From contig JAQUPL010000001.1 of NCBI GenBank assembly GCA_028716565.1, positions 409,476 to 473,475 on the forward strand: a DNA stretch of 64,000 nucleotides. The letters run 5' to 3'. The DNA is from Candidatus Omnitrophota bacterium (GTDB lineage Bacteria; Omnitrophota; Gorgyraeia; Pluralincolimonadales; Pluralincolimonadaceae). The notes under the pieces are model-generated. The model was given only the letters and a program-made list of their open reading frames with translations. It had not been told where the DNA came from and made no database searches. The stretch's first letter is position 1. Each line of letters opens with the position of its first letter. A program made the position numbers and the translations under genes. Of this stretch, positions 4,915-64,000 are shown one piece after another.

Positions 4915-4940
4915 GAATTTATCTCCTTTTGTAAGACTCT

Positions 4941-4969: not shown

Positions 4970-4975
4970 TATGCC

Positions 4976-31011: not shown

Positions 31012-31653
31012 TTATAAGGATCCCAGGATAGAAGACAATCCGGACAGGTCGTTTATCTTCAGGCAATCTACCGCCGCGAAAATACCGGTATTGCCGTTTA
31101 TCCGCGCGATGAACCTGACGCCGTTATCTTTTGCCGCCGAATAATCGCTCATCGCGTCGCCGACGTACACCGCCTCGCCGGGCGATAACCGGTTTCCGCT
31201 TAAGATATCTTTTACGATGGCCGATTTCGATTTGGGCGCGCCGTAAATACCCGCAAAATACCGGGCCATCTTCCTCTTCTGCGCTATCTCTTCGATCTCC
31301 TCCTGCGGGGTAGCGGACGCGATAAAGCATTTGTATCCGGCGCTGTAAGCTTCAAGGAATTCCCTGCCGCCTTTGACATAAGGGGCGTTTACGACTTCTT
31401 CGAGGACAAGGCCGGAGAAACGCTCGCAGAGTTCCTTGAACCTGCGTTCCGTAAGCTCCTTCTTAAGGAGCGTCTTGTAAAAATATTTTATCTTATCGAA
31501 CCTTGATACGCCGGTATGCCTCACATGATAATCGACGACCTGCTTGACGATCTCAGGGCCTTCATCCTCAAACAGCCTGGCGAACGCGTTTGTCTTTATA
31601 TCGACCGATTCAACGAGGACGCCGTCGAAGTCGAATACTATCGCCTTAATCAC
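31012..31653 (-). CDS. HAD-superfamily hydrolase (subfamily IA phosphatase/phosphomutase-like)
   Basis: IVFDFDGVLVES motif I and VGDAMSDYSAAKDNG motif IV. Confidence 0.7.
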   Translation of the reverse strand: MIKAIVFDFDGVLVESVDIKTNAFARLFEDEGPEIVKQVVDYHVRHTGVSRFDKIKYFYKTLLKKELTERRFKELCERFSGLVLEEVVNAPYVKGGREFLEAYSAGYKCFIASATPQEEIEEIAQKRKMARYFAGIYGAPKSKSAIVKDILSGNRLSPGEAVYVGDAMSDYSAAKDNGVRFIARINGNTGIFAAVDCLKINDLSGLSSILGSL

Positions 31654-32311
31654 TAAAACCTCCTATGATAGTGCATGGCGCGCTGTCTGCTCCCTCAACC
31701 CTAAGCGGCGAGACCGTCGCTTCGGACAGGCCCTTTAGGTCGCACGATAAGTCCATATCTTCTATTATAAGGACGGGGTTGTTCTCGCCCTCCGGGTCCA
31801 GGAATGCCTTGTGGGCCTGCCTGCCGATAGGACGGGCGCAGAACGGGGAAACGGATATCCAGTCGATCCCCACGGCCCTTATGTTAGGCAGCTTCTTCCT
31901 TATATACATCCCCACGTCAGGGTGTATCCCCGGGTTCTCCTTGCAGTACAATTCCTTGTCCCTGTGCCTTGTCCAGCCGGACTTCAAAAGCAGGATGTCC
32001 TTCGACCCGTCTATCTTCTCCAGCCACTTGCCGGCGCTCAAAAGCTCCGAAGGGGCCAGCGTGACGTCAATGGCCTGGGGAGCCCTGAAGACCCAAAATT
32101 CGGGCGGATAATCCGCGGCCTTCTTCCCGGCCTCAAAAAAATGATTGGGCGCATCTACGTGGGTACCCCAATGGCTTCCCATCGAAAACCGGTAGATGTT
32201 AGCCGAGCCGCCCCCTGAGATAGAACCTGTCTTGGCCATATCGAGGGAGTGTCCGCCGCCGTACGCGGGCAATTTATCCGTTAAGAGATGGGATAAAAAC
32301 CTGTATATCAT
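31646..32311 (-). CDS. cyclase-family metal hydrolase (kynurenine formamidase-like, PF04199-type)
   Basis: SHWGTHVDAPNHF (HxGTHxDAPxH) motif. Confidence 0.6.
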   Translation of the reverse strand: MIYRFLSHLLTDKLPAYGGGHSLDMAKTGSISGGGSANIYRFSMGSHWGTHVDAPNHFFEAGKKAADYPPEFWVFRAPQAIDVTLAPSELLSAGKWLEKIDGSKDILLLKSGWTRHRDKELYCKENPGIHPDVGMYIRKKLPNIRAVGIDWISVSPFCARPIGRQAHKAFLDPEGENNPVLIIEDMDLSCDLKGLSEATVSPLRVEGADSAPCTIIGGFSD

Positions 32312-33225
32312 TTTCCGGCTTTCTTTTTAGCTGCTTTTACGGCATGATCCGCGCGCGGGCTGAATTGCTTGTGCATTTCATAAATGCTGTCCAGGATCCC
32401 CTGGCTCAGGTCGAGATAAGTCTTGCTCGCCAGCCTCTTGCCTATCCTGGGCTTAAACGAATAAGGCGTTATCTCGTAGTGGCCGCTCTCCCTCGGGGAC
32501 AGGAATTCGATATCTATCTTGTTATCGAACATCTCGCGTATCATGACGAGGAGGTCTTTTATCCTCATCTGCTGGTTCCCGGTGAGGATCACGTGCTGGT
32601 TGGAGAACTCCTTCGCGAGTATTTCAACACTTCCTTTGGAGGCGTCGAATACGTGTATATATTCCCTTAATTCTTCCCCGTCGCCGTACCGCCTTATCTT
32701 GCCTTCGGTCAGGGCCTCTCTTATTATCCTGTGGATGAAATTGCCTTTATCCGACCGCGGGCCGTAAAGGGACCCGTAACGCAGGATCGTATAGGGAAGG
32801 CCGTACACTTCGTGGTAGTCCTCGATCAAGAACTCGCATGCCTGTTTAGCGCTCCTGTAGAACGAACCGGCCTTGCTGTAGACGTAAAGGGAGCTGGCAA
32901 ATACGAACCTTTTGATGCCGGCTTTCCTTGCGGCTTCCAGCAGCACGGAATTGCCGAGTATATTGGCCTTCACGGTATCGATAGGCCGCTTGCTCGCTTC
33001 CTCTATGTCCGCAATTCCGGCAAAATTATAGACGACCTCGCACCCCTTCATGCTCTTTGACACCAATTCCTCGTCCAGCACGTCGCCTACGATCATCTTT
33101 TGCCCCTTCTTGAGATATTGTGAGCGGACAAGGTCATAAACTATGACATCGTGCCCGGCATCGGTCAGGGCGTCCGCCACATGACTGCCGAGGAATCCCG
33201 AACCGCCAAAGACTATGACTTTCAT
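32308..33225 (-). CDS. NAD-dependent epimerase/dehydratase (SDR)
   Basis: VFGGSGFLGSH Rossmann motif and YRSAK (YxxxK). Confidence 0.65.
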   Translation of the reverse strand: MKVIVFGGSGFLGSHVADALTDAGHDVIVYDLVRSQYLKKGQKMIVGDVLDEELVSKSMKGCEVVYNFAGIADIEEASKRPIDTVKANILGNSVLLEAARKAGIKRFVFASSLYVYSKAGSFYRSAKQACEFLIEDYHEVYGLPYTILRYGSLYGPRSDKGNFIHRIIREALTEGKIRRYGDGEELREYIHVFDASKGSVEILAKEFSNQHVILTGNQQMRIKDLLVMIREMFDNKIDIEFLSPRESGHYEITPYSFKPRIGKRLASKTYLDLSQGILDSIYEMHKQFSPRADHAVKAAKKKAGK

Positions 33226-34145
33226 TTAACGTCCTCCAGTCCTTTTAACAGATTCTTCACCGCTTCCACCTCCATCTGTATCCTTGCCTCCCTGGCATAA
33301 GAACCGATGTGCGGCGTAAGTATGACATTTTCCATCTCTTTTAAAGGCCCCTGGTAGGGCTCCTGCTCAAAGACATCCATTGCCGCCCCTGACAGGCTGC
33401 CGTCTTTCAAGGCGCGGCATAAGGCCGCTTCGTCGACCATTCCTCCGCGCGACACATTGACGACCCACGCAAGTTTCTTCATCTTCTTAAGCTCGTTCTC
33501 CCCCAGCAGGTATCCTTCTTTTGTCTTGGAGACGTGTATCAGAACTATATCGGACGTACTTAATAATTCGTCGAGCCCGGTCTTTTTGGCGCCTGCGGCC
33601 GGCTGCCCGGCGGCATCCTTTATGTCATAATATGACAATTCGCATTTAAACGGGCCCAATAACTCCGCCACTTTCCTTCCTATGCGGCCAAAACCGATTA
33701 TGCCGACCCGTTTCCCGCTCAGGAGGCTTCCCATCCTTTTTTTCCATTTCCCGCCGCGGATCTCCCTGTCCATCTGGGACGTCCTTCTCAACAGGCTTAA
33801 CAATAATCCCACGGTAAGCTCAGCCACGGCGAGCGTCGGGGCGTCGGGCGTATTAAAGACGCGTATGCCTAACTCCGCGGCTGCCTTCAGGTCCACATTA
33901 TCCATCCCGGCTCCGCAGCGTGATATGACTTTAAGGCCGGGAAGGCGGGCCAAGTTATCCCTGTCGAGCGGCTCGGTCCCGGCGACGATGCCTACCGCAC
34001 CCGAAGCGAGCTTGGCTATCTCGTCTTTTGCCAGGCTCCTGCCGTTCGTGTTCAGGCCGGCCTCATAACCTGCCTCTTTGAGCAGGTCAAGCGGCGCGCG
34101 GTCAAATTCCCCAAAACTCGATGTCGAAATAAATATTTTTTTCAT
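33222..34145 (-). CDS. D-isomer-specific 2-hydroxyacid dehydrogenase (phosphoglycerate dehydrogenase-like)
   Basis: VGIIGFGRIGRKVAELL NAD-binding motif and a conserved R/E/H catalytic-region layout. Confidence 0.75.
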   Translation of the reverse strand: MKKIFISTSSFGEFDRAPLDLLKEAGYEAGLNTNGRSLAKDEIAKLASGAVGIVAGTEPLDRDNLARLPGLKVISRCGAGMDNVDLKAAAELGIRVFNTPDAPTLAVAELTVGLLLSLLRRTSQMDREIRGGKWKKRMGSLLSGKRVGIIGFGRIGRKVAELLGPFKCELSYYDIKDAAGQPAAGAKKTGLDELLSTSDIVLIHVSKTKEGYLLGENELKKMKKLAWVVNVSRGGMVDEAALCRALKDGSLSGAAMDVFEQEPYQGPLKEMENVILTPHIGSYAREARIQMEVEAVKNLLKGLEDVK

Positions 34146-34155
34146 GGGCTCCTCG

Positions 34156-35649
34156 TTAGAAATACTTCTTTTGGTATTCTTCGCTCAATTTCTTGAATAT
34201 CGCTTCGCTTCCCGGTTCAAGATTCTCAACTTTTTCGATATCAGGCCACATCGCTTCCGGGAACTTCACATAGAGACAGAATGTCTTGAGGAGCTGGTTG
34301 AGGCGCTCCTTTGTAATATTCTTGTTCTTTATGACACTATTCTGCAGGAGCGAGGCATTCGTGACAGAGCGGTCGATAAGGCCGTCCTTTACGCAAAGGT
34401 CATATAATCTCGTCCCGGTATAGGGATAGAATATGAAAACGCTCACCGTATCCGACCTTACCTTCCTGTTCAATCTTATGGTGTCAAAGATGAGTTCGCG
34501 CGTCTCATAGGGGAACCCTATGATATTGTTGACGCTCAGGGGGACGCCCACTTTATTGATGGTCTCGGTGGCCCTGATAAATTGATCGTTGGTAAAGTTC
34601 TTCCTTATTATCTTTCTCCTGAATTCCTCGTTGCCGTGTTCGAGCCCGACGGTGATACGGTCGCAGCCGCAATCCTTAAGCAGCCGCACCTTATCTTCGC
34701 TTATCGTCTCCACCCGCGACTGGCACCAGAAAGGAAGGCCGACCTCGTCCCTTATCCTCGACATCAACTTCACTAATACATCATCTCGGAGCGTCAGGAA
34801 AGTGTCGCTGTTAAAATAAAGGTACTCGAGACGGTATTTTTCCGCCATCTCTTTCATCTCTTCGATTATCTTCCCGGGGTCCTTCTTCCTGAAATAGCAT
34901 CCGCCGTTCTGCTCCCGGTACCAGTTCCGGTAAGCGGGCGAGGCACAAAAACTGCAGTCATAAGGGCATCCCCTGTCAAAGTCTACAGGCAGCATCCTGT
35001 ACATCTTTCCCTGCATGGGGCTGTGCAGCCTCTTTGGGTCAAAAAGCGAATAGTCGGGGGTAGGCAGCTTGTCCAGGTCGACCAGCGGCCTGACCTTGTT
35101 CTTGACGACCTCGCTGCCGCGCCTAAAGCATAAGTTTTGGACGTCCGAGTGATCCAGGCCGTTTTGCATCCTTTCGCATAATTCCACCAAAGCGCCTTCG
35201 CCTTCGCCGAGGCAGATGGAATCTATCTCCTTATTCTCAAACGCCTTCTCCTTGAGGTAAGAGATATAAATGCCGCCGAAGATGGTCGGCGGCCTGTCCT
35301 TACCCAACGATCCTATCAGCCTTAAAGCTAGCGGCATCGTGTCTTCCACGACCGTAACGCCTATCAGGTCGGGCTTGAATTCAGCGACCTTTTTTTTGAA
35401 ATCTTCGGTAACATCCGTTTTTTTGATGGATATCCCGTAATCCTGGGCGTCATAGCTCCTTACCTGCAGGTACGACTTCCGGATCTCGTCCGGGTTCTCC
35501 ATGTCGGTGCAGTAATATGTGGTATCGAACAACCCGACTTCAAAACCCTTCTGCTTAAGGCAAGCCGTGAGCAGCCCTATGGACGGGGGAAGCAGGTTCT
35601 TCATCATCATGTTCGGATATACCAACAGCGCTTTTATGTTATTCTTCAT
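34156..35649 (-). CDS. B12-binding (class B) radical SAM protein
   Basis: RGCPYDCSFCASPAY and an N-terminal B12-binding-like domain. Confidence 0.75.
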   Translation of the reverse strand: MKNNIKALLVYPNMMMKNLLPPSIGLLTACLKQKGFEVGLFDTTYYCTDMENPDEIRKSYLQVRSYDAQDYGISIKKTDVTEDFKKKVAEFKPDLIGVTVVEDTMPLALRLIGSLGKDRPPTIFGGIYISYLKEKAFENKEIDSICLGEGEGALVELCERMQNGLDHSDVQNLCFRRGSEVVKNKVRPLVDLDKLPTPDYSLFDPKRLHSPMQGKMYRMLPVDFDRGCPYDCSFCASPAYRNWYREQNGGCYFRKKDPGKIIEEMKEMAEKYRLEYLYFNSDTFLTLRDDVLVKLMSRIRDEVGLPFWCQSRVETISEDKVRLLKDCGCDRITVGLEHGNEEFRRKIIRKNFTNDQFIRATETINKVGVPLSVNNIIGFPYETRELIFDTIRLNRKVRSDTVSVFIFYPYTGTRLYDLCVKDGLIDRSVTNASLLQNSVIKNKNITKERLNQLLKTFCLYVKFPEAMWPDIEKVENLEPGSEAIFKKLSEEYQKKYF

Positions 35650-36461
35650 TTTCCAGGCTTCCGATCCGGGGATCCCTTGGCGGTAAACGCTTCTTTAATT
35701 ACCTTGTAAATCTGTCCGTGTCCTAATCCGGTGTAATGGACGCCGTCGTAGGAAAGTTTTTCGGGCCTATAAGCGGCCCCCTCAAAAGGATAGAGATATT
35801 CGATCCTGCCGCTCATCCCGCAGATTCCGGCTAAAAATCTGTTAGAATCTTTCAGTTTTGTAAAAAACTCTTTCGGCCGATTCCTTTTGATCTTTATTCC
35901 CTGGCTTACTTCTAACGTGCCCATGAGTATCGCGTTTCCCGAATGGCGTTCGATGCAATCCGCTATCTCCTTCTTGAACCTCTCCCGGTTAAAATCTATG
36001 GAGTAGAGATCCTTGATTTCGCCGTTCGATAGCAGGTATTTGCTTAATCTTTCAACCCGGAACCGCGCTTTTTTAAAATAGACGGCCTTTTGGTCCAGTA
36101 TATCGTTTATTATTTCAATCTTTTTCGGAGTAAAGTCGACGAGCCCGATCTCGGTGATCAAATGCTTAAAATAGAGTTTGTTCGACTCCAGGAAATTTAC
36201 CAGCGTCAAAAAGACCGTGCATTCCTTGGGACGGACCACAAGCATTACTGACATCTTCTTGTCCTTAAAATAACGGAACATCCTCATGCTCCAGCTGTCA
36301 TTGATAGATTTGATGTTGGAGCTCCTTGAATCGGAAAATATCAATACGTCTATCGCGCCTTTTTTCGGAAGGTTGCAGCATTTGAATACAAAGTCCCTGT
36401 TCGGGTTATCCCTGCCCGGCCCGAATTTCAGTCCTGCCTGTTTTTTCCCGCTTCTCGCCAT
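35646..36461 (-). CDS. SGNH/GDSL-type hydrolase-like protein
   Basis: DVLIFSDSRS near the N-terminus and DGVHYT (DxxH) near the C-terminus fit the SGNH blocks I and V. Confidence 0.4.
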   Translation of the reverse strand: MARSGKKQAGLKFGPGRDNPNRDFVFKCCNLPKKGAIDVLIFSDSRSSNIKSINDSWSMRMFRYFKDKKMSVMLVVRPKECTVFLTLVNFLESNKLYFKHLITEIGLVDFTPKKIEIINDILDQKAVYFKKARFRVERLSKYLLSNGEIKDLYSIDFNRERFKKEIADCIERHSGNAILMGTLEVSQGIKIKRNRPKEFFTKLKDSNRFLAGICGMSGRIEYLYPFEGAAYRPEKLSYDGVHYTGLGHGQIYKVIKEAFTAKGSPDRKPGK

Positions 36462-36471
36462 TTCCGGTATC

Positions 36472-37089
36472 TCAGCCCCTGCAATCCGCCTTTATTACCT
36501 TTGCGGGAACCCCGCAAGCCAGGGCCCCCGGCGGTATATCGCGGTTCACGACTGCGCCGGCGCCTATGACGGCTCCTTTACCTATCGTCACATTGCGCAG
36601 CACGACCGCATTTGCGCCTATCCAGACATCATCCTCCACGACTATCCTGCCTCCGGTATGGCCTTGTTTGTTGATAGGGATATCCTTGCGTCCGTATATG
36701 TGGTTGCTCGCGCGAATGACGACATTCGGCCCGATCGCCACGTTGTCGCCCAGGATTATTTCGCCGTCGTTTGCGGCCCCTATTATCACGTTGCTGTTCA
36801 TGTTGACCCCGTTGCCGATCTTGATGGTCCCGTTATCATTGGCATAAAGGCAGCAGTTGTGCATTATATTCACGCGATCGCCCATAGTGATGCCTTTCGG
36901 GTTCGTGACCCTGCAGCCGTATGAGATAATGAAGGAACGGCACCGGAGGAATTGCGGCGACCAGTATAAGCGCCGCGCCAATATCCCTATCCTTCCCGGA
37001 AGATAAGCGATAAACAACCTCTCGAACCACTCCCTGCACTCGGCGACCACCGTTCCTGCGGCGCGTTTCATGTTTCCTATCAAGCTCAT
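36472..37089 (-). CDS. hexapeptide-repeat (left-handed beta-helix) sugar O/N-acetyltransferase (WcaF/WbbJ-like)
   Basis: Tandem hexapeptide repeats IGNGVNMNSNVIIGAANDGEIILGDNVAIGPNVVI...IGANAVV. Confidence 0.7.
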   Translation of the reverse strand: MSLIGNMKRAAGTVVAECREWFERLFIAYLPGRIGILARRLYWSPQFLRCRSFIISYGCRVTNPKGITMGDRVNIMHNCCLYANDNGTIKIGNGVNMNSNVIIGAANDGEIILGDNVAIGPNVVIRASNHIYGRKDIPINKQGHTGGRIVVEDDVWIGANAVVLRNVTIGKGAVIGAGAVVNRDIPPGALACGVPAKVIKADCRG

Positions 37090-38078
37090 GACAAGGGCCC
37101 TTTCTTCCTGGCTATTATCCGCATATGGGAACTGAGATCGTTACTTGCGATCCAATCCTGCAACCCTTCCTTGCACACGTCAGTGCCGGAACGCGCTACC
37201 ATCTCCCATAGCCTGCCGGCTTTTACGCCTTCATCCTTTATCATCCCTTCGACTATATCCCAGTCAAGCTTGCCCGGCGTCGAGACCTCTTCCGCCTCGA
37301 AACCGATCCTCTCCATCAAATATCTCAATGAATGGGGATTAAAGAAATTAAGGTGGTGGGGCGGCGAAATACTCTTTGACTTTTCCCATAACAGCAGTAT
37401 GTCAAAGCCCATCCCGTTCAAGGTGGTCGCGAACAGCCGTCCGCCCGGCTTCAAGAGCGAGTGGGCCTTCTTGAAAAAGGAAAACGGGTCATGCAGGTGC
37501 TCGGCCAGTTCAAAAATGCTGAGCACATCGAATGAGCCGTCCAGGCCGGTTATATCTTCCATGCATGCGCATTCCACCTCAAGGCCGTTCTTTTTGCAGA
37601 TATCGGCCATTTCCAATGACGGCTCTACCGCAATATACTTGTTCCCGGAGGCAATATCCCTCAATTCTTCAAGGAAGATCCCGAACCCGGCCCCTATGTC
37701 CCCTATGACAAGCTCCCCGCTTTTACCGAGCATCTTGGCCAGATATTCCGCCCTCGGCCTGAATATCTTTTCCCTCCTGGCCGCGGCTACCGGCTTAAAG
37801 AACTCGTTTACCCAATAACTCGTCGAAGGCGAGTTTGAGTAAAATTCCTTCAATTTATTGAACGGCGGCCTCGGATTCACGAACAGGGTTGAACATTTCT
37901 TGCATGACACATACTTAAAACCCGCCTTTTCAAACTCGAAGGTGTGCTCTGCGCCGCCGCAGGACGGGCACCCGGCCGCGGCAAACGAAGCCGGGTCAAA
38001 GAATTCCCGCGCGTCTTTTTCGACCAACTCGAGATACTTATTGAATGTACTGCGTTTTCTTATATCGTTTTCTTTCAT
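37086..38078 (-). CDS. SAM-dependent methyltransferase with N-terminal Cys4 zinc ribbon (sugar C/O-methyltransferase-like)
   Basis: CPSCGG...CKKCS zinc ribbon, then IGDIGAGFGIF motif I. Confidence 0.6.
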   Translation of the reverse strand: MKENDIRKRSTFNKYLELVEKDAREFFDPASFAAAGCPSCGGAEHTFEFEKAGFKYVSCKKCSTLFVNPRPPFNKLKEFYSNSPSTSYWVNEFFKPVAAARREKIFRPRAEYLAKMLGKSGELVIGDIGAGFGIFLEELRDIASGNKYIAVEPSLEMADICKKNGLEVECACMEDITGLDGSFDVLSIFELAEHLHDPFSFFKKAHSLLKPGGRLFATTLNGMGFDILLLWEKSKSISPPHHLNFFNPHSLRYLMERIGFEAEEVSTPGKLDWDIVEGMIKDEGVKAGRLWEMVARSGTDVCKEGLQDWIASNDLSSHMRIIARKKGPLS

Positions 38079-38088
38079 GGTATCCCGC

Positions 38089-38874
38089 CTAACGGTATCC
38101 CTTCATCAAACGGTCCTTAAGCATCAGGTTCTCGACCTTGCGGAGGTCTTCTTCGGTATCCACGCTGTATGTGTCGTATTTCGTCCGGACCATCTTTACC
38201 TTATAGCCGTGCTCCAGGACCCTGAGCATGTCTACGGATTCCACGACCTCAAGCGGCGTCATCTTCAGCTTATTGAACTTGATGAGGAAATCCCTCCTGA
38301 AAGGGATTATGCAGACCTGCTTATACATCGGGACCTCCTTTGCGCCTTTCTTCCAGGACGGGATAGGCTCACGCGAAAAATACAGGGCCGAACCTTCCAG
38401 GTCCGTCACTACTTTTACCGCATTGGGGTCTCCCTGCTCTTCCTGCGATTTCAGGGGCGCCATAAGGTTGACTATCTGGACGTCCTTATCCTTCAACATC
38501 GGCCTTATCGATTCCTGGATCATCTCGGGATAGATCATGGGCTCATCGCCCTGTATCATGACCACTATGTCCAGCCTCTTTCCGGTCTTCTTCTCTATCT
38601 TCAGCATCGCTTCAGCTGCCCTGTCGGATGCGCGCTCGTGCGTATCTTTGGTCATGACCGCATTCATGCCGTTTTTTTCGCAATACTCCTTTATCTCCTC
38701 ATCGCATGTGGCGATATATACGTCCTTAAGGGACTTCGCCAGCTTACTCCTTAGGTATACATGGCCCACCATCGGGATGCCGCAGATCCCGGCCATCGGT
38801 TTCCCCGGAAAGCGCGATGATGCCATGCGGGCCGGGATGATGCCTGCGATATTGATACTATGTTTTTTGTTCAC
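38089..38874 (-). CDS. kdsB: 3-deoxy-manno-octulosonate cytidylyltransferase (KdsB, CMP-Kdo synthetase) family
   Basis: IIPARMASSRFPGKPM, VVMIQGDEPMI, NAVKVVTDLEGSALYFSREPIP and LRVLEHG track KdsB closely. Confidence 0.7.
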   Translation of the reverse strand: MNKKHSINIAGIIPARMASSRFPGKPMAGICGIPMVGHVYLRSKLAKSLKDVYIATCDEEIKEYCEKNGMNAVMTKDTHERASDRAAEAMLKIEKKTGKRLDIVVMIQGDEPMIYPEMIQESIRPMLKDKDVQIVNLMAPLKSQEEQGDPNAVKVVTDLEGSALYFSREPIPSWKKGAKEVPMYKQVCIIPFRRDFLIKFNKLKMTPLEVVESVDMLRVLEHGYKVKMVRTKYDTYSVDTEEDLRKVENLMLKDRLMKGYR

Positions 38875-39626
38875 CTCAGCTCTCCTGTCACTTCAAGGCA
38901 TTTCCTGCCGAGATACAGGGAATCCAGCCCTACCGCCAGGAATTTATAACCTTTTTGCTTCAATTCCTTTGCCCTTTTTATATCCGGCTCTACCACATGG
39001 AATCCCATCGGCTTCTTCATCTTCCTGCAGACATCCTCATAACGCTTGATCGCTTTTTTGACTTCGGGCCTGTCAAATCGACCGGGATACCCAAGCGAAC
39101 CGGATAGGTCATACGGCCCTATTATCGAGCCGTCGATCCCGTCAACGGCAAGGATCTCCTCCAGGTTATCAACGCTTTCTATGTGTTCTACTTGGGCTAT
39201 GATTATGCTTTTCTCTCGCAGCCATTTCTTGTAACGCTCGAACCCAAAACCGTACCCCTGGGCCCTTGCCAGTCCTACGCCCCTTGTCCCTTTCGGCGGA
39301 TAATTCACCGCCTTTACCGCCGCCTCGGCGTCAAACCTCGTATTTACCATCGGGACTACCACGCCGTGGGCGCCCGCGTCCATCACTCTTTTTATAAGGC
39401 ATGGGTCATTTTCCCCTACCCGGACAAGAGGGACGACCCCGGACAACTCAATGGTCCGGATCAATTCCTGCGCCTCAGGCAAAGTCATGGCGGAGTGCTC
39501 CATATCCACAACAAGCCAGTCGAAGCCCGCCCTTGCCATTATCTCGGCGACGGCGGTATCCCCGATAGTAATCCAGGAACCTACGCTGTATTCATTCCTT
39601 CCCAATTTCTTTTTCAGGTCAACCAT
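38871..39626 (-). CDS. HpcH/HpaI-family class II (metal-dependent) pyruvate aldolase
   Basis: 251 aa (beta/alpha)8 protein with the DWLVVDMEHS, AHGVVVPMV and IAQVEHIESVDNLEEI family signatures. Overlaps the kdsB-like start by 4 nt. Confidence 0.7.
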   Translation of the reverse strand: MVDLKKKLGRNEYSVGSWITIGDTAVAEIMARAGFDWLVVDMEHSAMTLPEAQELIRTIELSGVVPLVRVGENDPCLIKRVMDAGAHGVVVPMVNTRFDAEAAVKAVNYPPKGTRGVGLARAQGYGFGFERYKKWLREKSIIIAQVEHIESVDNLEEILAVDGIDGSIIGPYDLSGSLGYPGRFDRPEVKKAIKRYEDVCRKMKKPMGFHVVEPDIKRAKELKQKGYKFLAVGLDSLYLGRKCLEVTGELR

Positions 39627-41445
39627 TATCGCCTCCCTCTGATTTTTGCCTCGCTATCCTTTTGAATGCCTCGGATCCTTTGGAGAGGTCCGAAAAAGTC
39701 CCTTCATCGACGATTTTCCCGCCGTCAATGACATAAATATGGTCGGCGTGCTCAAGCGTATGCAGCCGGTGCGTAACTATGATGACCGTCATCTTCCTTC
39801 CGAGGTTTTTCAGCGCATTATATACCTTCTCCTCGGTATTGCCGTCCAGCGCCGATGTGGCCTCGTCGAGGACCAGTATCTCCGGGTCCCTGTAGAGCGC
39901 CCTCGCGATGCCTATCCGCTGCTTTTGGCCTCCCGATATCCGCACACCTTTTTCGCCGACATGGGTATCGACCCCTGCGGGCAATTCTTTCACAAAATCT
40001 TCGAGCTGGGAGACCCTGATGACCTGCCGCAGCTTCTCAGCATCGACCTTTTCAGCGGGGACCCCGAATGCGATATTGGACGAGATACTCTCATCGGTAA
40101 GGAATATATTCTGGGGGATATACCCTATCGACCGGCGGTATTGCAGCATATTGCCCTTGTCAAGCGCCTGGTCCCGGTAAAAGATTTTGCCCTGGTCCGC
40201 GCCCAACAGGCCTACAATTATATCTACCAGGGTGCTCTTTCCCGCGCCTGTCTCGCCTGCAATAGCTACCGTGCTGCCCAGTGGGATGGAAATATTCAGG
40301 CCTTTAAAGATGGGCTGGGCCGCGGCCTTGTAGCGGAACGTGACATCATCCAGCCGCAAGGTCCTGGCTCCCGGCCCGGCACGCAGGGCCCTGCTACCGG
40401 CAGGCGCTGCCTCCAAATCTTCGATCTCATCCTTGAGTATTTCATGCACTATATTCAAACTGTTGAAACCGTATTGGAGATAGCTGATGCTTGAATATAT
40501 CTTGGTAAATGACGGAAGGAGCCTTAACGCTGCCACCGCGAGGACAACTAACACCGGTATTACCTCTGCGGGCGTCCTATGCATGTACGAACTGGCCAAT
40601 ATCATGGAAAGTATAAAAGCGAACAATATGAGTTCGAATATGTAACGCGGCAACCCCGAAAGGACCGAGAACTTCACGAACCCGTCCGCATATTTCCTGG
40701 TCACGTCATAATATTTTGATATGAAAAACTGCTGGGCGTTATAAAGTTTTATTTCCTTGATCGCGCCTAAAGATTCTAAAGCCACCTTGAACATCTTTCC
40801 GTTGAATAACTCCCGCTGGCTCGCATACCCATTTATGCGCTTTTTGAAAAAAATGTTCACCCATATGGCAACGATACCCACTACGGAAACAAGTATTACC
40901 ATCAACAGCGGATACAGGGCTAATAAGAACAGGGATATGCCTATGATTATTATGCTCTCCGAGACCACCGAGACGACCGGGTTCAGGAAATAATATACGA
41001 CGTTCGAGACCTCGGTGGAGACGTTCTTAAAGAGTGCGGCTGAATTGCTGTCGAGATAAAATGCGTAAGGTTTGGTCAAATATGCCCTTAAGGTCTCACT
41101 GCTAAGGCGGGAATATATGACTCCCATTACCTTCTGCTGATAGTAGAGCATTGCAGCCGAGTAAAGCGACTTAAATAAGAATATCAGGAATGCTGCGGCG
41201 ACCAGGATGGTAAGGAAAGACACTTCGTCCTTCGCGCCTGACATGACATAAAGGTCCGACAGTATCTTTGAAGAGTGTATCTTCTCCGGCGCAAGGAAGA
41301 GCCCCAGCACAGGGATCAGGATCCCTATGCTGAATATCTCCGATACCGATAATACGCACGCGCCGAGAGACAAGCCTAAAAGCTTCAGCTTCTCGCCCTT
41401 GGTCAGCATCCCCCTTATCTTAGTCAACGATCCTGTCTTTGGCAT
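39619..41445 (-). CDS. ABC transporter, fused permease/ATPase (MsbA/PglK-like exporter)
   Basis: N-terminal 6-TM domain, Walker A GETGAGKST, signature LSGGQKQR and Walker B ILVLDEATSALD. Confidence 0.8.
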   Translation of the reverse strand: MPKTGSLTKIRGMLTKGEKLKLLGLSLGACVLSVSEIFSIGILIPVLGLFLAPEKIHSSKILSDLYVMSGAKDEVSFLTILVAAAFLIFLFKSLYSAAMLYYQQKVMGVIYSRLSSETLRAYLTKPYAFYLDSNSAALFKNVSTEVSNVVYYFLNPVVSVVSESIIIIGISLFLLALYPLLMVILVSVVGIVAIWVNIFFKKRINGYASQRELFNGKMFKVALESLGAIKEIKLYNAQQFFISKYYDVTRKYADGFVKFSVLSGLPRYIFELILFAFILSMILASSYMHRTPAEVIPVLVVLAVAALRLLPSFTKIYSSISYLQYGFNSLNIVHEILKDEIEDLEAAPAGSRALRAGPGARTLRLDDVTFRYKAAAQPIFKGLNISIPLGSTVAIAGETGAGKSTLVDIIVGLLGADQGKIFYRDQALDKGNMLQYRRSIGYIPQNIFLTDESISSNIAFGVPAEKVDAEKLRQVIRVSQLEDFVKELPAGVDTHVGEKGVRISGGQKQRIGIARALYRDPEILVLDEATSALDGNTEEKVYNALKNLGRKMTVIIVTHRLHTLEHADHIYVIDGGKIVDEGTFSDLSKGSEAFKRIARQKSEGGDNG

Positions 41446-41464: not shown

Positions 41465-43327
41465 TTAATTGCGTAGGTATTCGATTATCCTGCTGCCGGC
41501 ATTCCCGTCGAGTTTCCCCATGTATTTGGCCGCGTGTTTCCCGAGGAAATCCTCCAGGAACCGGTTAAGATCTTCAGGGTCATCCAGGTTTTTCATTATG
41601 ATATCCATCAGCTCTTTCCCGGTTGACACCCTTAACACCTCTTCTCCGTTGATCCCGTTTAGCGGCGGGAGCAGGGTTTCGGGGTTGAAATAAGGCTCGA
41701 GGAAGACTGTCGGCACGCCCGCCGCCTGCGCTTCATAAAAACAGCTGGTTACGTTGGAGACAACCAGGTCCATGTCGTACACGACCCTGGAGAAAGGCGT
41801 GTCTTCAATATATACGAACTTCGATGTATCCACCTTGAAAAAATCAAAAAGATATTCAAAATACTTTTTTTCATAACCCGGATGGGGCTTGAAATAGACC
41901 TTCACATTACGGGAATTGAGCTCGCCGAATATAGAGAAGATCTCCTCGTAATACTTTTCCTGGTATGCGAACCGGTCCAAGTGGCTGTAAAAACCGTCCT
42001 CAAAGCTCAGGAACATTACGTTCCTGATCGAACTTACGTGCTTGACCTTGTCGGGGGTATAAATATCCAAAGACGGGTTTCCCAGCGCAACGTACCGGCT
42101 CGTGCCCGTGCCCTGCGAACGGTAGTAACCGGTAAAGAATTCTCCGGAACAGATGACCAGGTCGGACCTGCCCCTGTCGCATACTTTTTGGGCGTGGTTG
42201 CTCCCCTGGATACCGTGGTCTACCCATACTGACATGATGCCTGCCGACCTGCATGCGGCAATGACCGCCTGGAATTGTTCGTCGATCTCTTCAAATATTA
42301 TCATCTTCGAGATACCGAACTGCCTTACCGCTTTTCTCACCTTTCCCGCATACTCCATCAAACCGGGTATCACGCTGCGCACCAGGTCCTTGACCGCGGG
42401 GTAATATAAGAAACGGTAGTCTATGCCGTTGAATACAAAAAAGCCGTCGAGATATGCTCCTGCCCCTTCAACCAGGTATTTATTTTCGATCGACTCCAGA
42501 AATCTTCTTTCATCTTTATCAAGATTATATGAAACATCGTCGAACTGGAGAAAACGCGGATTCAGGAAACGGCGCGGGTTTAATACGTTCGAGCCGGACC
42601 CGCTAACTATGAACTTATCCGTCATGTGTTCCAGGATGCTGTTTATATTAAAATAGGAAAAGAAATATATGTTACCGCGTGACCCGGTTAGCGCGCTAAT
42701 GAGCGCGCTAACTTCTATCAACATGCCTTTTACGGCATCCTTTAGGCCGCGTACCAGAGTCTTACGGCTGCCTGCCTGCTTAAAAGATACGCATAGGGAC
42801 GGGATGTGAGTGGCCGGGACGATCGGGACGCATTCGCGTTCCAACTGCCTGCACACCTGCTCGACAAGGCGCACTTTATTAAAGAACCTTCCCTTGTCAT
42901 CGCCGCGAAGATAGAAACTGTTACTTGAAACAGAAAGGTCAAAGTAGACCTTTTGCGCTTCCGGCCAGCGCCTTATCGCTTTCCGGACGGCTTCACCGTA
43001 CTTCAGCAAGACCGTTAACATGTATTTCCGTGAAAATGTGATCCTTGCCATATCCCCGTAAGATATCCCCCCGTAGACGGAATGGTCTGTTCCGTCCCTC
43101 CGATACCAATCAAGCGCGAAATGGTCCGTGGCCGAATGGAGCGACTTATAATCAGCCGGGGTGAACAGGTCTTCGATAAAATAAAAAATATGCTTCCCGC
43201 CTTCTCTCTTCAGGCGCAGGTAGGCCAGGTAGTTGAAGCAGACCGTCACGTCGCTGCCCTCACGATATGCTGCGGACCCTTTGAAGGAATCTAGGGTGCG
43301 GTCATTTTCGACAAGGAACAAGTTCAT
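41465..43327 (-). CDS. hypothetical GT-B-like protein with KPHP motif (TagF or KpsC/KpsS-like), paralogous in layout to 29278..31005
   Basis: 620 aa. VYFKPHPGYEKKY followed by LVVSNVTSCFYEAQAAGVPTVFL. Confidence 0.35.
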   Translation of the reverse strand: MNLFLVENDRTLDSFKGSAAYREGSDVTVCFNYLAYLRLKREGGKHIFYFIEDLFTPADYKSLHSATDHFALDWYRRDGTDHSVYGGISYGDMARITFSRKYMLTVLLKYGEAVRKAIRRWPEAQKVYFDLSVSSNSFYLRGDDKGRFFNKVRLVEQVCRQLERECVPIVPATHIPSLCVSFKQAGSRKTLVRGLKDAVKGMLIEVSALISALTGSRGNIYFFSYFNINSILEHMTDKFIVSGSGSNVLNPRRFLNPRFLQFDDVSYNLDKDERRFLESIENKYLVEGAGAYLDGFFVFNGIDYRFLYYPAVKDLVRSVIPGLMEYAGKVRKAVRQFGISKMIIFEEIDEQFQAVIAACRSAGIMSVWVDHGIQGSNHAQKVCDRGRSDLVICSGEFFTGYYRSQGTGTSRYVALGNPSLDIYTPDKVKHVSSIRNVMFLSFEDGFYSHLDRFAYQEKYYEEIFSIFGELNSRNVKVYFKPHPGYEKKYFEYLFDFFKVDTSKFVYIEDTPFSRVVYDMDLVVSNVTSCFYEAQAAGVPTVFLEPYFNPETLLPPLNGINGEEVLRVSTGKELMDIIMKNLDDPEDLNRFLEDFLGKHAAKYMGKLDGNAGSRIIEYLRN

Positions 43328-44676
43328 CCGGCTGCGCGCCCGTCTTTATTGGCAAGGAAATATTTTGCGATATGGAGCATCTTATAATCATCATATTTTT
43401 TCGCCGCGACCTGCAAGCCGAAAGGCAATCCGTTCGGGCCCGTAAATGCCGGTATGTTCAAGACAGGGTAACCGAGGAATGTCCAGATCAGGCAGGTATC
43501 CGGCTTTTCCCTCTCGTCGATAAGGGGAGGCTCTCCGGAAGTGGACAGTGTCAACACCGCATCGTATCCCGCCAGTTCCTTCCCTATCCTTGCGCCGATC
43601 CGGACTTGCTCTCCTAACGCATCGGCATATTCGGCGCCTGTGATCCGGTTGCCCCGCTCTATTATCTCATACATCAATTCACTGATAAGCGTGTGCTGTT
43701 TAAACTCATCCTTGAAATAATAGGACAGTGTCTTGTCGTAGATCGTCGAGTGGATGTCATGTATCTTATTAAAATCTGCGGAGGGCTTGATCTTGACAAG
43801 CTCGACCTGCCCCTTCCCCTTCAGGCCGCGGATATACGAATCGAACGCATCCATCGCGTATTTTTCGAACTTATTAAAGACATGTATCCCGCCGGAAATG
43901 AAACCGACTTTGATCTTCCTGGAAAGTCTTATTGGGGAATTCCGGTCAAGGGTCGCGTTGACGAAAGGATAATTGCTCCCCCTCACCCTGATGACGTCAA
44001 AAAGCAGCTTGACGTCATCGACGGTCCTGGCCAGCAATCCGACCGTATCCAATGAATCCGTCGTCTTGAGCATGGCCGTCCTCGGGACCGTCCCGAACGT
44101 CGGCTTAAAACCGTATACCCCGCAATAGCTCGCCGGCCTTATTATCGAACCCGCGGTCTGGGTGCCTAAAGCTAACGGCACCATATACGAAGCGACGGCC
44201 GCAGCCGAACCGCTCGATGAAGTGCCGGGGGAATAACGGGGATCGTGCGGGTTAACCGTCTTATTCTTAGGCAGGTAATGGACTGCGAACTCTGCGCTGA
44301 CGGTCTTGCCCAGGACCAGCCCGTCCTGCATCCGGATAGAATGGACTACCCTTGCGTCGTTGCCGGGCGTAAAACCCTTCCATAAGGGGCTCCCCATAGC
44401 GGTAGGCATATCGCTGGTATTGAATATATCCTTCACTCCTACCGGGACCCCGGCCAATGACCCTAATTCCTTCTTCTTGTCAAGGCGCTTCGCATGCCTT
44501 ATTGCCGATTCCGGGTCTATATATTCCCAGGCCTTGACTACAGGGTCTTTTTCCGAGACCGCTTCCAGACAGTCGCGGCAGGCCTCTTCGACGCTTACTT
44601 TTTTACTCTTGATTTTCTTGATCAGCTCTGTCGCAGAAAGAAGGTTTAATTTCATATTTTTACCTTTTCGTATCAC
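43324..44676 (-). CDS. amidase-signature family enzyme
   Basis: GGSSSGSAAAVAS amidase signature. Confidence 0.7.
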   Translation of the reverse strand: MIRKGKNMKLNLLSATELIKKIKSKKVSVEEACRDCLEAVSEKDPVVKAWEYIDPESAIRHAKRLDKKKELGSLAGVPVGVKDIFNTSDMPTAMGSPLWKGFTPGNDARVVHSIRMQDGLVLGKTVSAEFAVHYLPKNKTVNPHDPRYSPGTSSSGSAAAVASYMVPLALGTQTAGSIIRPASYCGVYGFKPTFGTVPRTAMLKTTDSLDTVGLLARTVDDVKLLFDVIRVRGSNYPFVNATLDRNSPIRLSRKIKVGFISGGIHVFNKFEKYAMDAFDSYIRGLKGKGQVELVKIKPSADFNKIHDIHSTIYDKTLSYYFKDEFKQHTLISELMYEIIERGNRITGAEYADALGEQVRIGARIGKELAGYDAVLTLSTSGEPPLIDEREKPDTCLIWTFLGYPVLNIPAFTGPNGLPFGLQVAAKKYDDYKMLHIAKYFLANKDGRAAG

Positions 44677-45824
44677 GGGAGCAGCTTCGCCTTTTTGTCG
44701 CGCTTATCTTTCAGTATCTTCTCAAACTCCTTTTCGCTGTAACCCGTAATTTTAAGGTAGTAATCGAGCGATTTCGAGGGCCTTTGGGCGTCATGTTTCT
44801 TCGCCAGCTCAAAACCTTCCTCCCGCGTCAATAGCCCGGTGCGGACGTCGATCGAGGCGTGGTCGGTGCCCCTGCCGAATCCCCTCTTGATGAATTTGGA
44901 ATAATCGTGCATCCCTGCCATCCTGCATTCGGCGCTTTTGTATCCCTTGTAAGTCCCCTCGATCTTATCTTCGCGCCAGCCGAAATTGTCGCGGACGAAC
45001 TCTGTCTGTCTTTCGTCGTCCCAGAACATGTAGTCCCCAAGGTAGATACCTACGATGCCCGCCTTCTCGACCTCTTCTTTCGAAGGAAGGACATACCCGA
45101 GGACATCGCTTAAGGATATGTTTTTGTCTACCACCTCTTCCGCGTAGTATCTTGCCGATATCTTGGTGAAATAATCGCGGTCATACGGGATGGGATCGAA
45201 ATACGTAGCGCGGCCGTGATTCTCCCCGCCCGGCTCGCCCCATATCAGCAGCTTTATTTTGTATTTCACCGCTATCTGCAAAGGGAACGCCCCCACGCCG
45301 GCATGGCAATGCCAGCACGTGTCCCCTATAAGCTGCAGGGATTTCTTCGCCAGTTTATTGACCGCCGACCTTTTGGGCGTGAACATGATGTGGTCCACAT
45401 CAAATCTCTCTAGCGCGTTCTCGAGGTTATATTTGCCGGTCTCGCTGTACCAGTTATGGTTGAAGGTGACAGCCAAAGGGTTCAATTTGTATACCTGCGT
45501 CACAACATACAGCTGGAAGGTGCTGTCCTTTCCGCCGCTTATAGGGACGATACAGTCGTAATTGCTCCCGTCCTTTGAACGGTATTTCTCAAGGATCTTC
45601 CTCAGCTTCGCCTCCCTCTCCTTCCAGTTTATGTGTATCTTCTGTTCGGAAGAACGGCAGGGCTGGCAGATACCCATTTCGTCGAATGCCAGGCCTTCGG
45701 CCGTCTCCGGCATGCAGCAGCGGACACAGTATCTTATCTTCCCGTGAAAGAGCGGTTTGCCGTATCCGGCCTTTTTGGCCAACCGTTCGTAACGCGTCTG
45801 CTTAACGCGCTTTTTATCGCCCAT
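44673..45824 (-). CDS. N-acetyl sugar amidotransferase (WbpG/PseA/WbuX family PP-loop ATPase)
   Basis: CxxC zinc ribbon at the N-terminus and CIVPISGGKDST PP-loop. Confidence 0.7.
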   Translation of the reverse strand: MGDKKRVKQTRYERLAKKAGYGKPLFHGKIRYCVRCCMPETAEGLAFDEMGICQPCRSSEQKIHINWKEREAKLRKILEKYRSKDGSNYDCIVPISGGKDSTFQLYVVTQVYKLNPLAVTFNHNWYSETGKYNLENALERFDVDHIMFTPKRSAVNKLAKKSLQLIGDTCWHCHAGVGAFPLQIAVKYKIKLLIWGEPGGENHGRATYFDPIPYDRDYFTKISARYYAEEVVDKNISLSDVLGYVLPSKEEVEKAGIVGIYLGDYMFWDDERQTEFVRDNFGWREDKIEGTYKGYKSAECRMAGMHDYSKFIKRGFGRGTDHASIDVRTGLLTREEGFELAKKHDAQRPSKSLDYYLKITGYSEKEFEKILKDKRDKKAKLLP

Positions 45825-45830
45825 TTCCCG

Positions 45831-46388
45831 TCACCTCGCCTTCTTTCTTCTCATATACTCATCGCGCAATATGCCGTATTCTATGATATCCTGGTAGGCG
45901 CCGTCCTTTAAGAACGCCTGGCGCCTGCGGCCTTCCTTTTTCATCCCCATGTGGGCGGCCAGTCCTTGCATCGCGATATTTTTCTCGTTGGTCCCGCAGT
46001 AGACCCTGTGCAAATTAAGCGCCAGGAAAGCGTGCCGCAATAACAGGCCCGACGCTTCCTTGGCTATTCCCCTGCCCCAATACTTCTTCTCCCCGATGAT
46101 TATGGCAAATTCCCCATTTCTCGCTATCCAGTCGATCCCGTGCAATGCAATATTCCCGATATGCCGGTCGTTCTTTTTGGACACTATCGCGAGCACAAGG
46201 TCAGAGCCGCTGTTATTCACCCTGTCTACGTAACTTTCCGCCTTGGCGGCCGAGTTCGGGAAGCGCCCATGGGCGTTGTTGCGGCATACTTCCCGGTCGT
46301 TAAGCCACTGAGGATAATTGCCTTTAACATCACCCTTCTCAATAGCTCTGAGATAGATCTGTTTTCCTTCCAAAAATACGGATCTCAT
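45831..46388 (-). CDS. GNAT-family N-acetyltransferase
   Basis: RGRGIAKEASGLL acetyl-CoA binding motif; 185 aa. Confidence 0.65.
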   Translation of the reverse strand: MRSVFLEGKQIYLRAIEKGDVKGNYPQWLNDREVCRNNAHGRFPNSAAKAESYVDRVNNSGSDLVLAIVSKKNDRHIGNIALHGIDWIARNGEFAIIIGEKKYWGRGIAKEASGLLLRHAFLALNLHRVYCGTNEKNIAMQGLAAHMGMKKEGRRRQAFLKDGAYQDIIEYGILRDEYMRRKKAR

Positions 46389-48837: not shown

Positions 48838-48844
48838 ATGTTTC

Positions 48845-49807: not shown

Positions 49808-49808
49808 G

Positions 49809-51502: not shown

Positions 51503-51504
51503 CC

Positions 51505-56019: not shown

Positions 56020-56041
56020 TTTTCACTCCCGTGTTTGCATG

Positions 56042-63542: not shown

Positions 63543-64000
63543 GCCATAAGCCCGATCGTTTTGTTCCTTACGGTTTCCAGCACCTCTTTTGAAGTGAAGG
63601 CGAGCGGGTCGACCAATTCGCTCACGATAGCGTTAGCCCTTTTCAGGTCGCCGGGTTGGTCGATAGTCAACCTTATCCCATGCAAAAATTCCGGGTTGAG
63701 CCCGGCGTCGATGAATTTTGCCGAAAATTCCTGCGGATGCGACGTTATGTATTTTGTCACGTGCTCCAGGTCTTCTTTTTCCCTGGTCCTCATCGCCGCC
63801 TTCTCCAGGGCTTCCGCGGTTACCGCCTCCGAATAGAAACCGGACGCGCATGTGCTGCGCTCCAATGAAGCATAATCCAGTTTTTCTGCGATGAGCGCCT
63901 TCAGCAGCGTATTGACTAAAGCGGTATCCACGAAAGGGGTATCCGCGCACACGCGGACGACGTATCCGGCGTTCACCGATCCGGCTGCCCGTATGTACCT
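63539..64000 (-). CDS. CTP_transf_3 cytidylyltransferase-like, C-terminal part only (N-terminus beyond window)
   Basis: RLTIDQPGDLKRANAIV resembles the conserved SpsF/NeuA C-terminal block. The reading frame stays open to the window edge. Confidence 0.4.
   Translation of the reverse strand, partial: RYIRAAGSVNAGYVVRVCADTPFVDTALVNTLLKALIAEKLDYASLERSTCASGFYSEAVTAEALEKAAMRTREKEDLEHVTKYITSHPQEFSAKFIDAGLNPEFLHGIRLTIDQPGDLKRANAIVSELVDPLAFTSKEVLETVRNKTIGLMA

Follow-up and report, generated by a model that had tools for sequence, protein, structure and literature searches.

The question raised by this locus is why a gene resembling kdsB, the gene for the enzyme that couples Kdo (3-deoxy-manno-octulosonate) to cytidine monophosphate (CMP), is joined to a gene for a pyruvate aldolase of the HpcH/HpaI family. 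Both genes lie in a 64-kb window, the whole stretch of DNA analysed here, from a Candidatus Omnitrophota bacterium. To our knowledge, Kdo, Kdn and the sialic, legionaminic and pseudaminic acids are all made, in the pathways established so far, by synthases of the KdsA or NeuB type, which depend on phosphoenolpyruvate (PEP), and we know of no HpcH-type enzyme linked at the gene level to ulosonic acid biosynthesis. Our hypothesis, to which we assign a probability of roughly 0.55 on the basis of sequence comparison, is that the aldolase (ALD) and the cytidylyltransferase (CT) are the synthase/activase pair of a mobile gene cassette, which would provide a PEP-independent route to a CMP-activated 3-deoxy-2-ulosonic acid other than Kdo. 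In this bacterium, the product is proposed to enter an O-antigen-type polymer of the lipopolysaccharide (LPS).

The two genes are encoded on the minus strand. ALD, a class II (metal-dependent) pyruvate aldolase and the proposed C-C bond-forming synthase, has 251 amino acids (38871..39626), and CT, which is proposed to activate the aldolase product with CMP, has 261 (38089..38874). At the junction, GGAGAGCTGAGGTGAAC, the TGA stop codon of the aldolase lies over the GTG start codon of the cytidylyltransferase with four shared nucleotides (GTGA), and GGAGAG is located 5' of this start as ribosome-binding site. Similarly, the stop of the gene for an ATP-binding cassette (ABC) exporter (39619..41445) and the start of ALD share eight nucleotides. 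Because of these overlapping junctions, exporter, aldolase and cytidylyltransferase are translationally coupled. A preliminary description of the window had reported a KdsB-like gene overlapping an upstream HpcH/HpaI-type partner by four nucleotides; the two stretches quoted there, IIPARMASSRFPGKP and NAVKVV...ALYFSREPIP, are present in 38089..38874, and the overlap as well as the family of the partner (Pfam HpcH_HpaI, 3.6e-39) were confirmed. Long open reading frames (ORFs) antisense to the cassette were also seen on the plus strand at 36286..39665, for example 37858..38754 (298 amino acids). With no protein family behind them, they resemble the shadow ORFs that a strongly skewed coding strand produces.

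The match of ALD to PF03328 (134.8 bits) covers residues 17-236. Among the entries of the PDB, 21 relatives were found at E ≤ 1e-10, with YfaU (2vws, 1.6e-45) at the top, and the closest solved relatives are YfaU/RhmA, HpaI and GarL. With 195, 174 and 166 bits toward the NCBIfam models for HpaI, GarL and RhmA, respectively, against cutoffs of 369, 407 and 441 bits, ALD reached about half the cutoff score for all curated equivalogs. Residues H44, R69, E147 and D173 were invariant across 30 orthologs and aligned to H49, R74, E153 and D179 of YfaU, the catalytic His, Arg, Glu and Asp as assigned by Rea et al. Furthermore, the invariant residues specific to the family include the stretches LARAQGYGF and GPYDLSGS. 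A protein of the same sequence (100% identity) is encoded in a Candidatus Omnitrophica metagenome-assembled genome, and the 120 nearest database relatives of ALD (63-71% identity) are spread over many phyla. Judged by these alignments, ALD forms a clade of its own that no curated family covers.

CT was assigned to CTP_transf_3 (Pfam, 5e-47), and its top match in the PDB was the capsule CMP-Kdo synthetase KpsU (1gq9; phmmer, 3.5e-40). It passed the NCBIfam subfamily models NF009905 'KdsB' (308 bits vs. 255) and NF003952, stayed below the cutoff of the equivalog NF003948 (194 vs. 281 bits) and scored only 31 bits with the PseF model. The residues for cytidine triphosphate (CTP) and Mg (R10, R15, K19, QGDEP and D225, KpsU numbering) and the arginine of the FSR motif were kept in 49 of 49 CTs. 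In contrast, a signature of six residues, C57, R81, Q186, I190, D215 and M216, replaces D, S, H, Y, E and Q of the solved KdsB/KpsU enzymes and was invariant in all 169 members compared (49 locus orthologs and the 120 nearest database homologs). Expressed as changes to KdsB, ATD became ATC, S became R, H181 and Y185 of E. coli KdsB (EcKdsB) became Q and I, and LEQLR became VDMLR; Q98 was retained.

For this comparison, six of the 13 KdsB/KpsU sequences in the PDB were aligned residue by residue. The H, the Y and the EQ are kept in KdsB of E. coli, Coxiella, Yersinia, Vibrio and Aquifex, the last of which was enzymatically characterised (PMC3149649), and in KpsU. In EcKdsB, the C5-OH of Kdo is hydrogen-bonded by Y185 and Q98, and H181 is located in the active site (PMC12199768); the significance given to LEQLR derives from its conservation. 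As Y185, H181 and LEQLR are invariantly replaced, Kdo itself is unlikely to be the substrate of CT. The simplest inference is a related ulosonic acid, which would differ from Kdo at C5 or in the tail region. The earlier statement that the enzyme follows KdsB closely is too strong with respect to these three sites. In the source databases, CT-type proteins carry the name CMP-Kdo synthetase.

When genomes were scanned by pattern, with each species represented once, at least 528 of them, monoderm bacteria and Archaea among them, encoded a relative of ALD. The best 80 of these at least 528 loci, with ALD 52-71% identical, were kept (individual loci are cited by L numbers). Bacterial carriers among the 80 include Planctomycetota, Firmicutes, Patescibacteria, Dehalococcoidia, Bacteroidota, Campylobacterota and Desulfobacterota, and archaeal carriers include Methanoperedens, Methanoregula, Thermoplasmatales, Hadarchaeum and Woesearchaeota. 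Full cassettes were present in Methanoperedens (L013), Thermoplasmatales (L032), Methanoregula (L074) and Syntrophomonas wolfei (L009), the last being represented by a cultured strain, subsp. methylbutyratica JCM 14075. The ALD-CT pair was found in Patescibacteria (L012) and Saccharibacteria (L028); loci of Dehalococcoidia had either the pair (L017) or a variant with a short NeuA-like cytidylyltransferase (L035, L037). The archaeal, monoderm, Patescibacteria and Dehalococcoidia carriers are not expected to make Kdo for LPS.

Partner genes were counted by comparing the window proteins with the genome loci by tblastn/blastp and by de novo clustering of locus ORFs. Counts refer to 47 loci with full flanks, and distances were counted separately over 55 or 73 loci. 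A KdsB-like CT was present in 34 of the 47 full-flank loci with a median identity of 62%. Its start lay at most 100 nucleotides from the ALD stop in 29 of 73 loci, five of them with the same 4-nucleotide overlap, and it lay within 4 kb of ALD in 43 of 73. When any CTP_transf_3 gene within 5 kb of ALD was counted, at least 49 of 55 loci had one. Loci seeded with CT had ALD directly upstream in three of three cases. Thus conserved in both directions over more than 20 phyla, the adjacency of ALD and CT is far beyond chance. Because the synteny spans phyla, domains and organisms without LPS, ALD and CT would act together on a non-canonical ulosonic acid.

The loci without a KdsB-like CT showed two other arrangements. 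In one of them (L024, L027, L035, L037, L039, L044, L046, L058, and L067), a CTP_transf_3 gene for a NeuA-like protein of about 225 amino acids and a gene resembling MptE or Maf (DUF115), or one for a protein of about 400 amino acids of unknown function, directly precede ALD, which is followed by genes for a D-2-hydroxyacid dehydrogenase (HADH), an extended short-chain dehydrogenase/reductase (SDR), a HAD phosphatase and, in part, a cyclase-family hydrolase. No NeuB was found within the fetched flanks of most of these loci, so that ALD is the only conserved C-C bond-forming enzyme next to the cytidylyltransferase. In the other arrangement (L040, L042, L053, L078, L080, and L082, from Dehalococcoidia, Bacteroidota and Desulfamplus), ALD, a short NeuA-like cytidylyltransferase and HADH are accompanied by SIS (GmhA-like), adh_short, DHQS-like and Gfo/Idh/MocA proteins, and sometimes by YhcH/DUF386 or IMPase-like proteins. 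This suggests a different, perhaps heptose-derived, acceptor.

Two loci had unusual neighbours. In L088 (Eremiobacterota), PhdYeFM, DUF2442 and Uma2 genes at 4832..6326 separate a legionaminic-type cluster from a minimal cassette of ALD, acetyltransferase, CT and methyltransferase, and this toxin-antitoxin-type set is consistent with the cassette having been inserted as a mobile unit. In Dissulfurispiraceae (L001/L002), a 23S_rRNA_IVP/bAvd-like gene (20415..20765) adjoins the cassette; bAvd-like proteins are an accessory protein type of diversity-generating retroelements.

The window itself consists almost entirely of one glycan-biosynthesis cluster on the minus strand. All of its 59 ORFs of at least 90 amino acids, plus one missed ORF, were scanned with Pfam or NCBIfam. 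No KdsA (DAHP_synth_1), SIS/CBS-type KdsD or KdsC-type phosphatase was found among them, in agreement with the preliminary description, which had reported no KdsA or KdsD in the 64 kb. That description had also considered kds genes just outside the window; none were found in the 10 kb past its left end, and kdsA, kdsC, kdsD and waaA are absent from window and 10-kb left flank alike. The left flank contains an O-antigen-ligase-like gene, two Glyco_transf_9 (family-9, heptosyltransferase-type) genes and other glycosyltransferase genes, followed by housekeeping genes (in L086, 11472..17894: the Glyco_transf_9 pair, glycosyltransferases and a GmhB-like phosphatase, then UDG and PriA). As the cluster continues into heptosyltransferase-type genes, the window is part of the LPS core/O-antigen region of a diderm.

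On the same strand, the genes downstream of CT complete the cassette. They begin with a SAM-dependent methyltransferase (37086..38078; Methyltransf_23, 3.3e-22), a putative tailoring enzyme with orthologs in 25 of the 47 full-flank loci (median identity 42%), mostly adjoining CT. A hexapeptide-repeat acyl- or acetyltransferase (36472..37089; Pfam Hexapep, NCBIfam WbbJ-like), likewise presumed to be tailoring, has counterparts between or after ALD and CT in L007, L021, L025, L029, L088 and L089. The following 271-amino acid protein of unknown family (35646..36461) gave no match in Pfam or NCBIfam, and its homologs occur in cassettes L072, L076 and L083. Next is a B12-binding radical SAM enzyme (34156..35649; B12-binding and Radical_SAM domains), a probable C-methylase for tailoring, which was found in 14 of the 47 loci. 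The cluster contains three further genes of this kind on the minus strand (9755..11260, 21045..22436, and 22441..23913); such genes recur in related cassettes, and the enzymes may C-methylate sugars.

HADH (33222..34145; 2-Hacid_dh_C, 2.2e-54) is short and resembles phosphoglycerate dehydrogenase (PGDH), the top match in the PDB being the short archaeal 'phosphoglycerate dehydrogenase' 1wwk (3.7e-56). Together with a cytidylyltransferase, it is among the most constant partners of ALD (43/47 full-flank loci, and 48/55 in the distance count). The extended SDR (32308..33225), which is similar to GalE and dehydratases of nucleoside diphosphate (NDP) sugars (Epimerase, 2e-44; PDB 4zrm, 4.6e-28), occurred in 27 of the 47 loci with 51% identity. 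A cyclase-family metal hydrolase, distantly similar to kynurenine formamidase (31646..32311; PF04199, 1.2e-19; PDB 4cz1, 1.8e-10), and a capped HAD-IA phosphatase (31012..31653; HAD_2, 7e-20; TIGR01549 over cutoff) were present in 18 and 25 of the 47, respectively. The phosphatase is not of the KdsC type (TIGR01670, 15.9 bits vs. a cutoff of 107). Metagenome loci seeded with HADH at about 44% identity or more were mostly cassettes with ALD, CT, SDR, HAD and cyclase genes, and more distant matches were ordinary dehydrogenases. Upstream of ALD, the ABC exporter (ABC_membrane and ABC_tran; an MsbA/PglK/HepA-like half-transporter below the PglK and MsbA cutoffs) has similar genes 5' of ALD in L008, L019 and L025.

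The cassette is closed by a 575-amino acid protein with a KPHP motif (29278..31005), a putative glycosyltransferase; cassettes L009, L013, L026 and L076 are likewise closed by proteins of about 590 amino acids. A model derived from a 53-sequence alignment predicted a GT-B fold (pLDDT 92), and the KPHP histidine as well as E500 are invariant in the family. The putative second transferase of 620 amino acids (41465..43327) is encoded 5' of the exporter and has homologs 5' of ALD in L057 and L069. Its C-terminal 200 residues, including KPHP, matched the 575-amino acid family in hhalign (95.4% probability, E = 1.7e-8), and sub-threshold matches were obtained to TIGR04396 and, in the KPHP region, to the polysialyltransferases PF07388 (E = 0.0068). 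An HP motif is common to beta-Kdo transferases and CMP-sialic acid transferases (PMC10148158). The fold search with the 575-amino acid model assigned no specific family of CMP-sugar transferases. The suggestion that the two KPHP proteins are transferases is therefore a reasonable one in view of the modelled GT-B fold of the shorter protein, the invariant histidine, the HP motif and the homology of the longer protein, and it does not extend to a specific family.

The following pathway is conceivable. HADH, SDR, HAD phosphatase and cyclase would provide one of the two reactants, either the aldehyde that serves as acceptor or a pyruvate substituted at C3, for example hydroxypyruvate. As one attractive idea, the PGDH-like enzyme and the phosphatase could convert 3-phosphoglycerate to hydroxypyruvate as donor, or provide tartronate semialdehyde as acceptor; alternatively, SDR, cyclase and HAD might, in the manner of nonulosonic acid pathways, free an aldose from a nucleotide sugar. 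The metal-bound enolate of pyruvate would then add to the aldehyde according to the chemistry of the HpcH/HpaI family, giving a 4-hydroxy-2-oxo acid that cyclises, and this step would stand in for the PEP-dependent KdsA/NeuB reaction. CT, which has the catalytic residues required, would couple the anomeric 2-OH of the presumed substrate to CMP from CTP. Methyltransferase, acetyltransferase and B12-binding radical SAM enzyme (possibly by C-methylation) would tailor the sugar, the GT-B 'KPHP' protein would move it from its presumed CMP donor to a glycan, and the coupled ABC transporter would export the product.

We infer from the sequences the synthetic direction of ALD, the identity of the aldehyde, the use of the ALD product by CT and the roles of HADH, SDR, HAD and cyclase. 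Plausible acceptors at the level of the enzyme families are hydroxypyruvate or tartronate semialdehyde, aldose phosphates, and an aldose freed from an NDP-sugar. Glyoxylate was rejected, as a CMP-ketoside requires a ring and its product, 4-hydroxy-2-oxoglutarate, cannot close one. Phosphonate tailoring by a PEP mutase, a cytidylyltransferase and a PhpK-like B12-binding radical SAM enzyme, considered for weak PhpK-type matches, was also rejected, as no PEP mutase or decarboxylase was found among the scanned window ORFs. The two-step scheme proposed earlier, aldol condensation followed by CMP activation, agrees with the conserved pair and ignores the conserved HADH, SDR, HAD and cyclase. Its idea of a non-canonical ulosonic route gains from the coupling, the local lack of KdsA and KdsD, the synteny and the aldolase residues; the scheme is incomplete, and Kdo as its product is unlikely.

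The window also contains a line of nonulosonic acid genes on the minus strand (43324..57154), which the preliminary description had overlooked. A PEP-dependent synthase of the NeuB family is encoded at 53928..55001, 14 kb from CT, and scores below both the NeuB and the PseI equivalog cutoffs; near it lies a second CTP_transf_3 gene (49809..50588). The line further comprises PseG-like (52927..53931) and GNAT/PseH-like (52167..53009) proteins, a BFO_1060-like glycosyltransferase (47704..48837), two WbuX amidotransferases (44673..45824 and 56042..57154), a PIG-L deacetylase, a formyltransferase, a Gfo/Idh/MocA protein, a DegT aminotransferase (PseC-like), a GNAT protein and an amidase. With NeuB and a second cytidylyltransferase in the same window, the ALD/CT pair is a second CMP-sugar line within an O-antigen-type cluster that contains nonulosonic acid genes. 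An ORF running off the right end (63539..63976, minus strand) resembles the C-terminal half of CTP_transf_3 over 145 residues (E = 0.0013, below cutoff) and may be a third, truncated cytidylyltransferase gene; the window has one NeuB against two, possibly three, cytidylyltransferases. Two AsnB-type glutamine amidotransferases are encoded on the minus strand at 13188..15089 and 58525..60213, and together with the WbuX paralogs and the amidase they hint that the glycan carries several decorations of the amide or amidine kind.

Several points weigh against the proposed ulosonic acid route. The constancy of HADH is not explained by it. A few sets of HADH, SDR, HAD and cyclase genes were without ALD in the fetched flanks (L097, L113, and L114), and L088 has ALD and CT with no HADH, SDR or HAD nearby. 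Pyruvate aldolases are reversible, usually catabolic enzymes that are regarded as degradative. A diderm host with adjoining heptosyltransferase genes needs a CMP-Kdo synthetase somewhere, and CT is, if barely, above the TIGR00466 kdsB cutoff (162.6 vs. 155.2 bits). With a NeuB 14 kb away, a nonulosonic acid would in principle also be a possible substrate of CT. Furthermore, the Kdo-contact residues used in the comparison were taken from one modelling paper (PMC12199768) rather than from coordinates, and the replaced sites need to be read with this in mind.

In one alternative, ALD and HADH would make a hydroxy acid, for example of the 2,4-dihydroxy or glycerate type, that decorates a NeuB-derived sugar, with CT as the CMP-nonulosonate synthetase of that sugar. 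Aldol addition and subsequent reduction of the 2-oxo group form a natural two-step sequence, which suits the presence of HADH in 43/47 and 48/55 loci, and NeuB lies within 10 kb of the cassette in 17 of the 47 full-flank loci (about 17-20 loci in all) and also in the window. In L088, the order ALD, hexapeptide acyltransferase, CT, methyltransferase stands beside a legionaminic-type cluster with no other cytidylyltransferase in view, and glyceroyl as well as other acyl groups have been described on nonulosonic acids (SugarBase preprint). However, no conserved acyl-activating enzyme (ligase, acyl carrier protein or coenzyme A-transferase) was found in the cassette loci compared, cassettes without visible NeuB keep a cytidylyltransferase and a transferase next to ALD, CT is nearest to enzymes for the 8-carbon Kdo with only 31 bits for PseF, and the window already has a separate cytidylyltransferase among its NeuB/PseG/PseC-like genes. 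We consider this explanation unlikely. Canonical supply of Kdo to LPS was ruled out as the leading explanation by the signature substitutions and by the archaeal and monoderm distribution. A role of CT as a true CMP-Kdo synthetase, that is, a KpsU-like paralog served by a KdsA encoded elsewhere or by ALD acting as Kdo aldolase, is improbable to a similar degree: Y185, H181 and LEQLR, kept in the six solved KdsB/KpsU sequences, are replaced in 169 of 169 members, the NF003948 equivalog model was failed (194 vs. 281 bits), the cassette occurs in Archaea and monoderms without LPS, and HADH, SDR, HAD and cyclase would have no explanation. It draws on the NCBIfam KdsB subfamily and TIGR00466 cutoffs that CT passes, on KpsU as the top solved relative with all catalytic residues kept, and on the LPS-core-type genes adjoining the cluster; Kdo aldolase activity (EC 4.1.2.23; D-arabinose plus pyruvate) is moreover an established reaction. 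That ALD cleaves a 2-keto-3-deoxy sugar acid in catabolism or salvage and adjoins CT without functional relation would match its characterised close relatives YfaU/RhmA, HpaI and GarL, all of them catabolic lyases. A transporter, dehydratase, kinase or regulator of the kind typical for the catabolism of sugar acids was not found at the locus, the gene is part of a biosynthetic operon on one strand in which stops and starts overlap, and across domains it is accompanied by CT, transferases and tailoring enzymes in conserved synteny, all of which makes such a function highly improbable. A slim chance is left to some explanation beyond these four.

Compared with known systems, the proposed ulosonic acid route shares with the Kdo pathway (KdsD-KdsA-KdsC-KdsB/KpsU) a homologous last-step enzyme with its CTP/Mg residues, a phosphatase, and the transfer of a presumed CMP-3-deoxy-2-ulosonic acid by a GT-B transferase with an HP motif. 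In contrast to that pathway, the cassette has no PEP-dependent KdsA, no KdsD and no phosphatase of the KdsC type (capless HAD-IIIA); a class II pyruvate aldolase would form the C-C bond, the Kdo contacts are replaced, and the cassette occurs in hosts without LPS. The nonulosonic pathways (NeuB/PseI/LegI with NeuA/PseF/LegF) similarly combine a free aldose with a C3 unit, followed by CMP activation, tailoring and transfer. Clusters of this kind are often neighbours of the cassette, some variants of which have a short NeuA-like cytidylyltransferase and Maf/MptE-like transferases. The cassette differs in a condensing enzyme that is not NeuB, in the use of pyruvate proposed in place of PEP, in a core without aminotransferase and, in the window, in a cytidylyltransferase of the KdsB type. 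CMP-activated C10 ulosonic acids of unknown origin were reported for Magnetospirillum (SugarBase preprint, 10.64898/2026.04.20.719630).

With HpaI, GarL, YfaU/RhmA and the hydroxyketoacid aldolase SwHKA, ALD has the Pfam family, the TIM-barrel fold and the catalytic residues in common, and the expected chemistry is that of pyruvate (or hydroxypyruvate) plus an aldehyde to a 4-hydroxy-2-oxo acid; unlike these enzymes, it is placed in its own clade and in a biosynthetic (glycan) context rather than a catabolic one. The sialic acid aldolase NanA and Kdo aldolase (EC 4.1.2.23) likewise form ulosonic acids reversibly from pyruvate and an aldose, but NanA is a catabolic class I (Schiff-base) enzyme of the DHDPS family, whereas ALD belongs to class II. 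No description of the cassette was found in the literature on HpcH/HpaI aldolases with a cytidylyltransferase in ulosonic acid, nonulosonic acid or O-antigen clusters. The single enzymes are of known kinds, and what would be new is a CMP-ulosonic acid pathway with another type of condensing enzyme and a product of its own.

We see an even chance that HpcH-type aldolases constitute a third, PEP-independent class of ulosonic acid synthase with a dedicated KdsB-derived cytidylyltransferase, that an undescribed CMP keto-deoxy acid is thereby used on the surfaces of hundreds of mostly uncultured Bacteria and Archaea, and that the genes are mis-annotated, those for the cytidylyltransferase as CMP-Kdo synthetase and those for ALD as catabolic aldolases. 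If true, a class II pyruvate aldolase would open a new way into the synthesis of CMP-activated acidic sugars, and HpcH-type aldolases are attractive for biocatalysis. Thousands of entries named '3-deoxy-manno-octulosonate cytidylyltransferase' would then probably not be Kdo enzymes, and the signature ATC, H-E-R, Q..I.F and VDMLR could serve as a rule for their re-annotation. For the organisms themselves, it would mean that many phyla, among them candidate phyla and Archaea of the methanogen and anaerobic methanotroph (ANME) type, have a surface monosaccharide not described so far.

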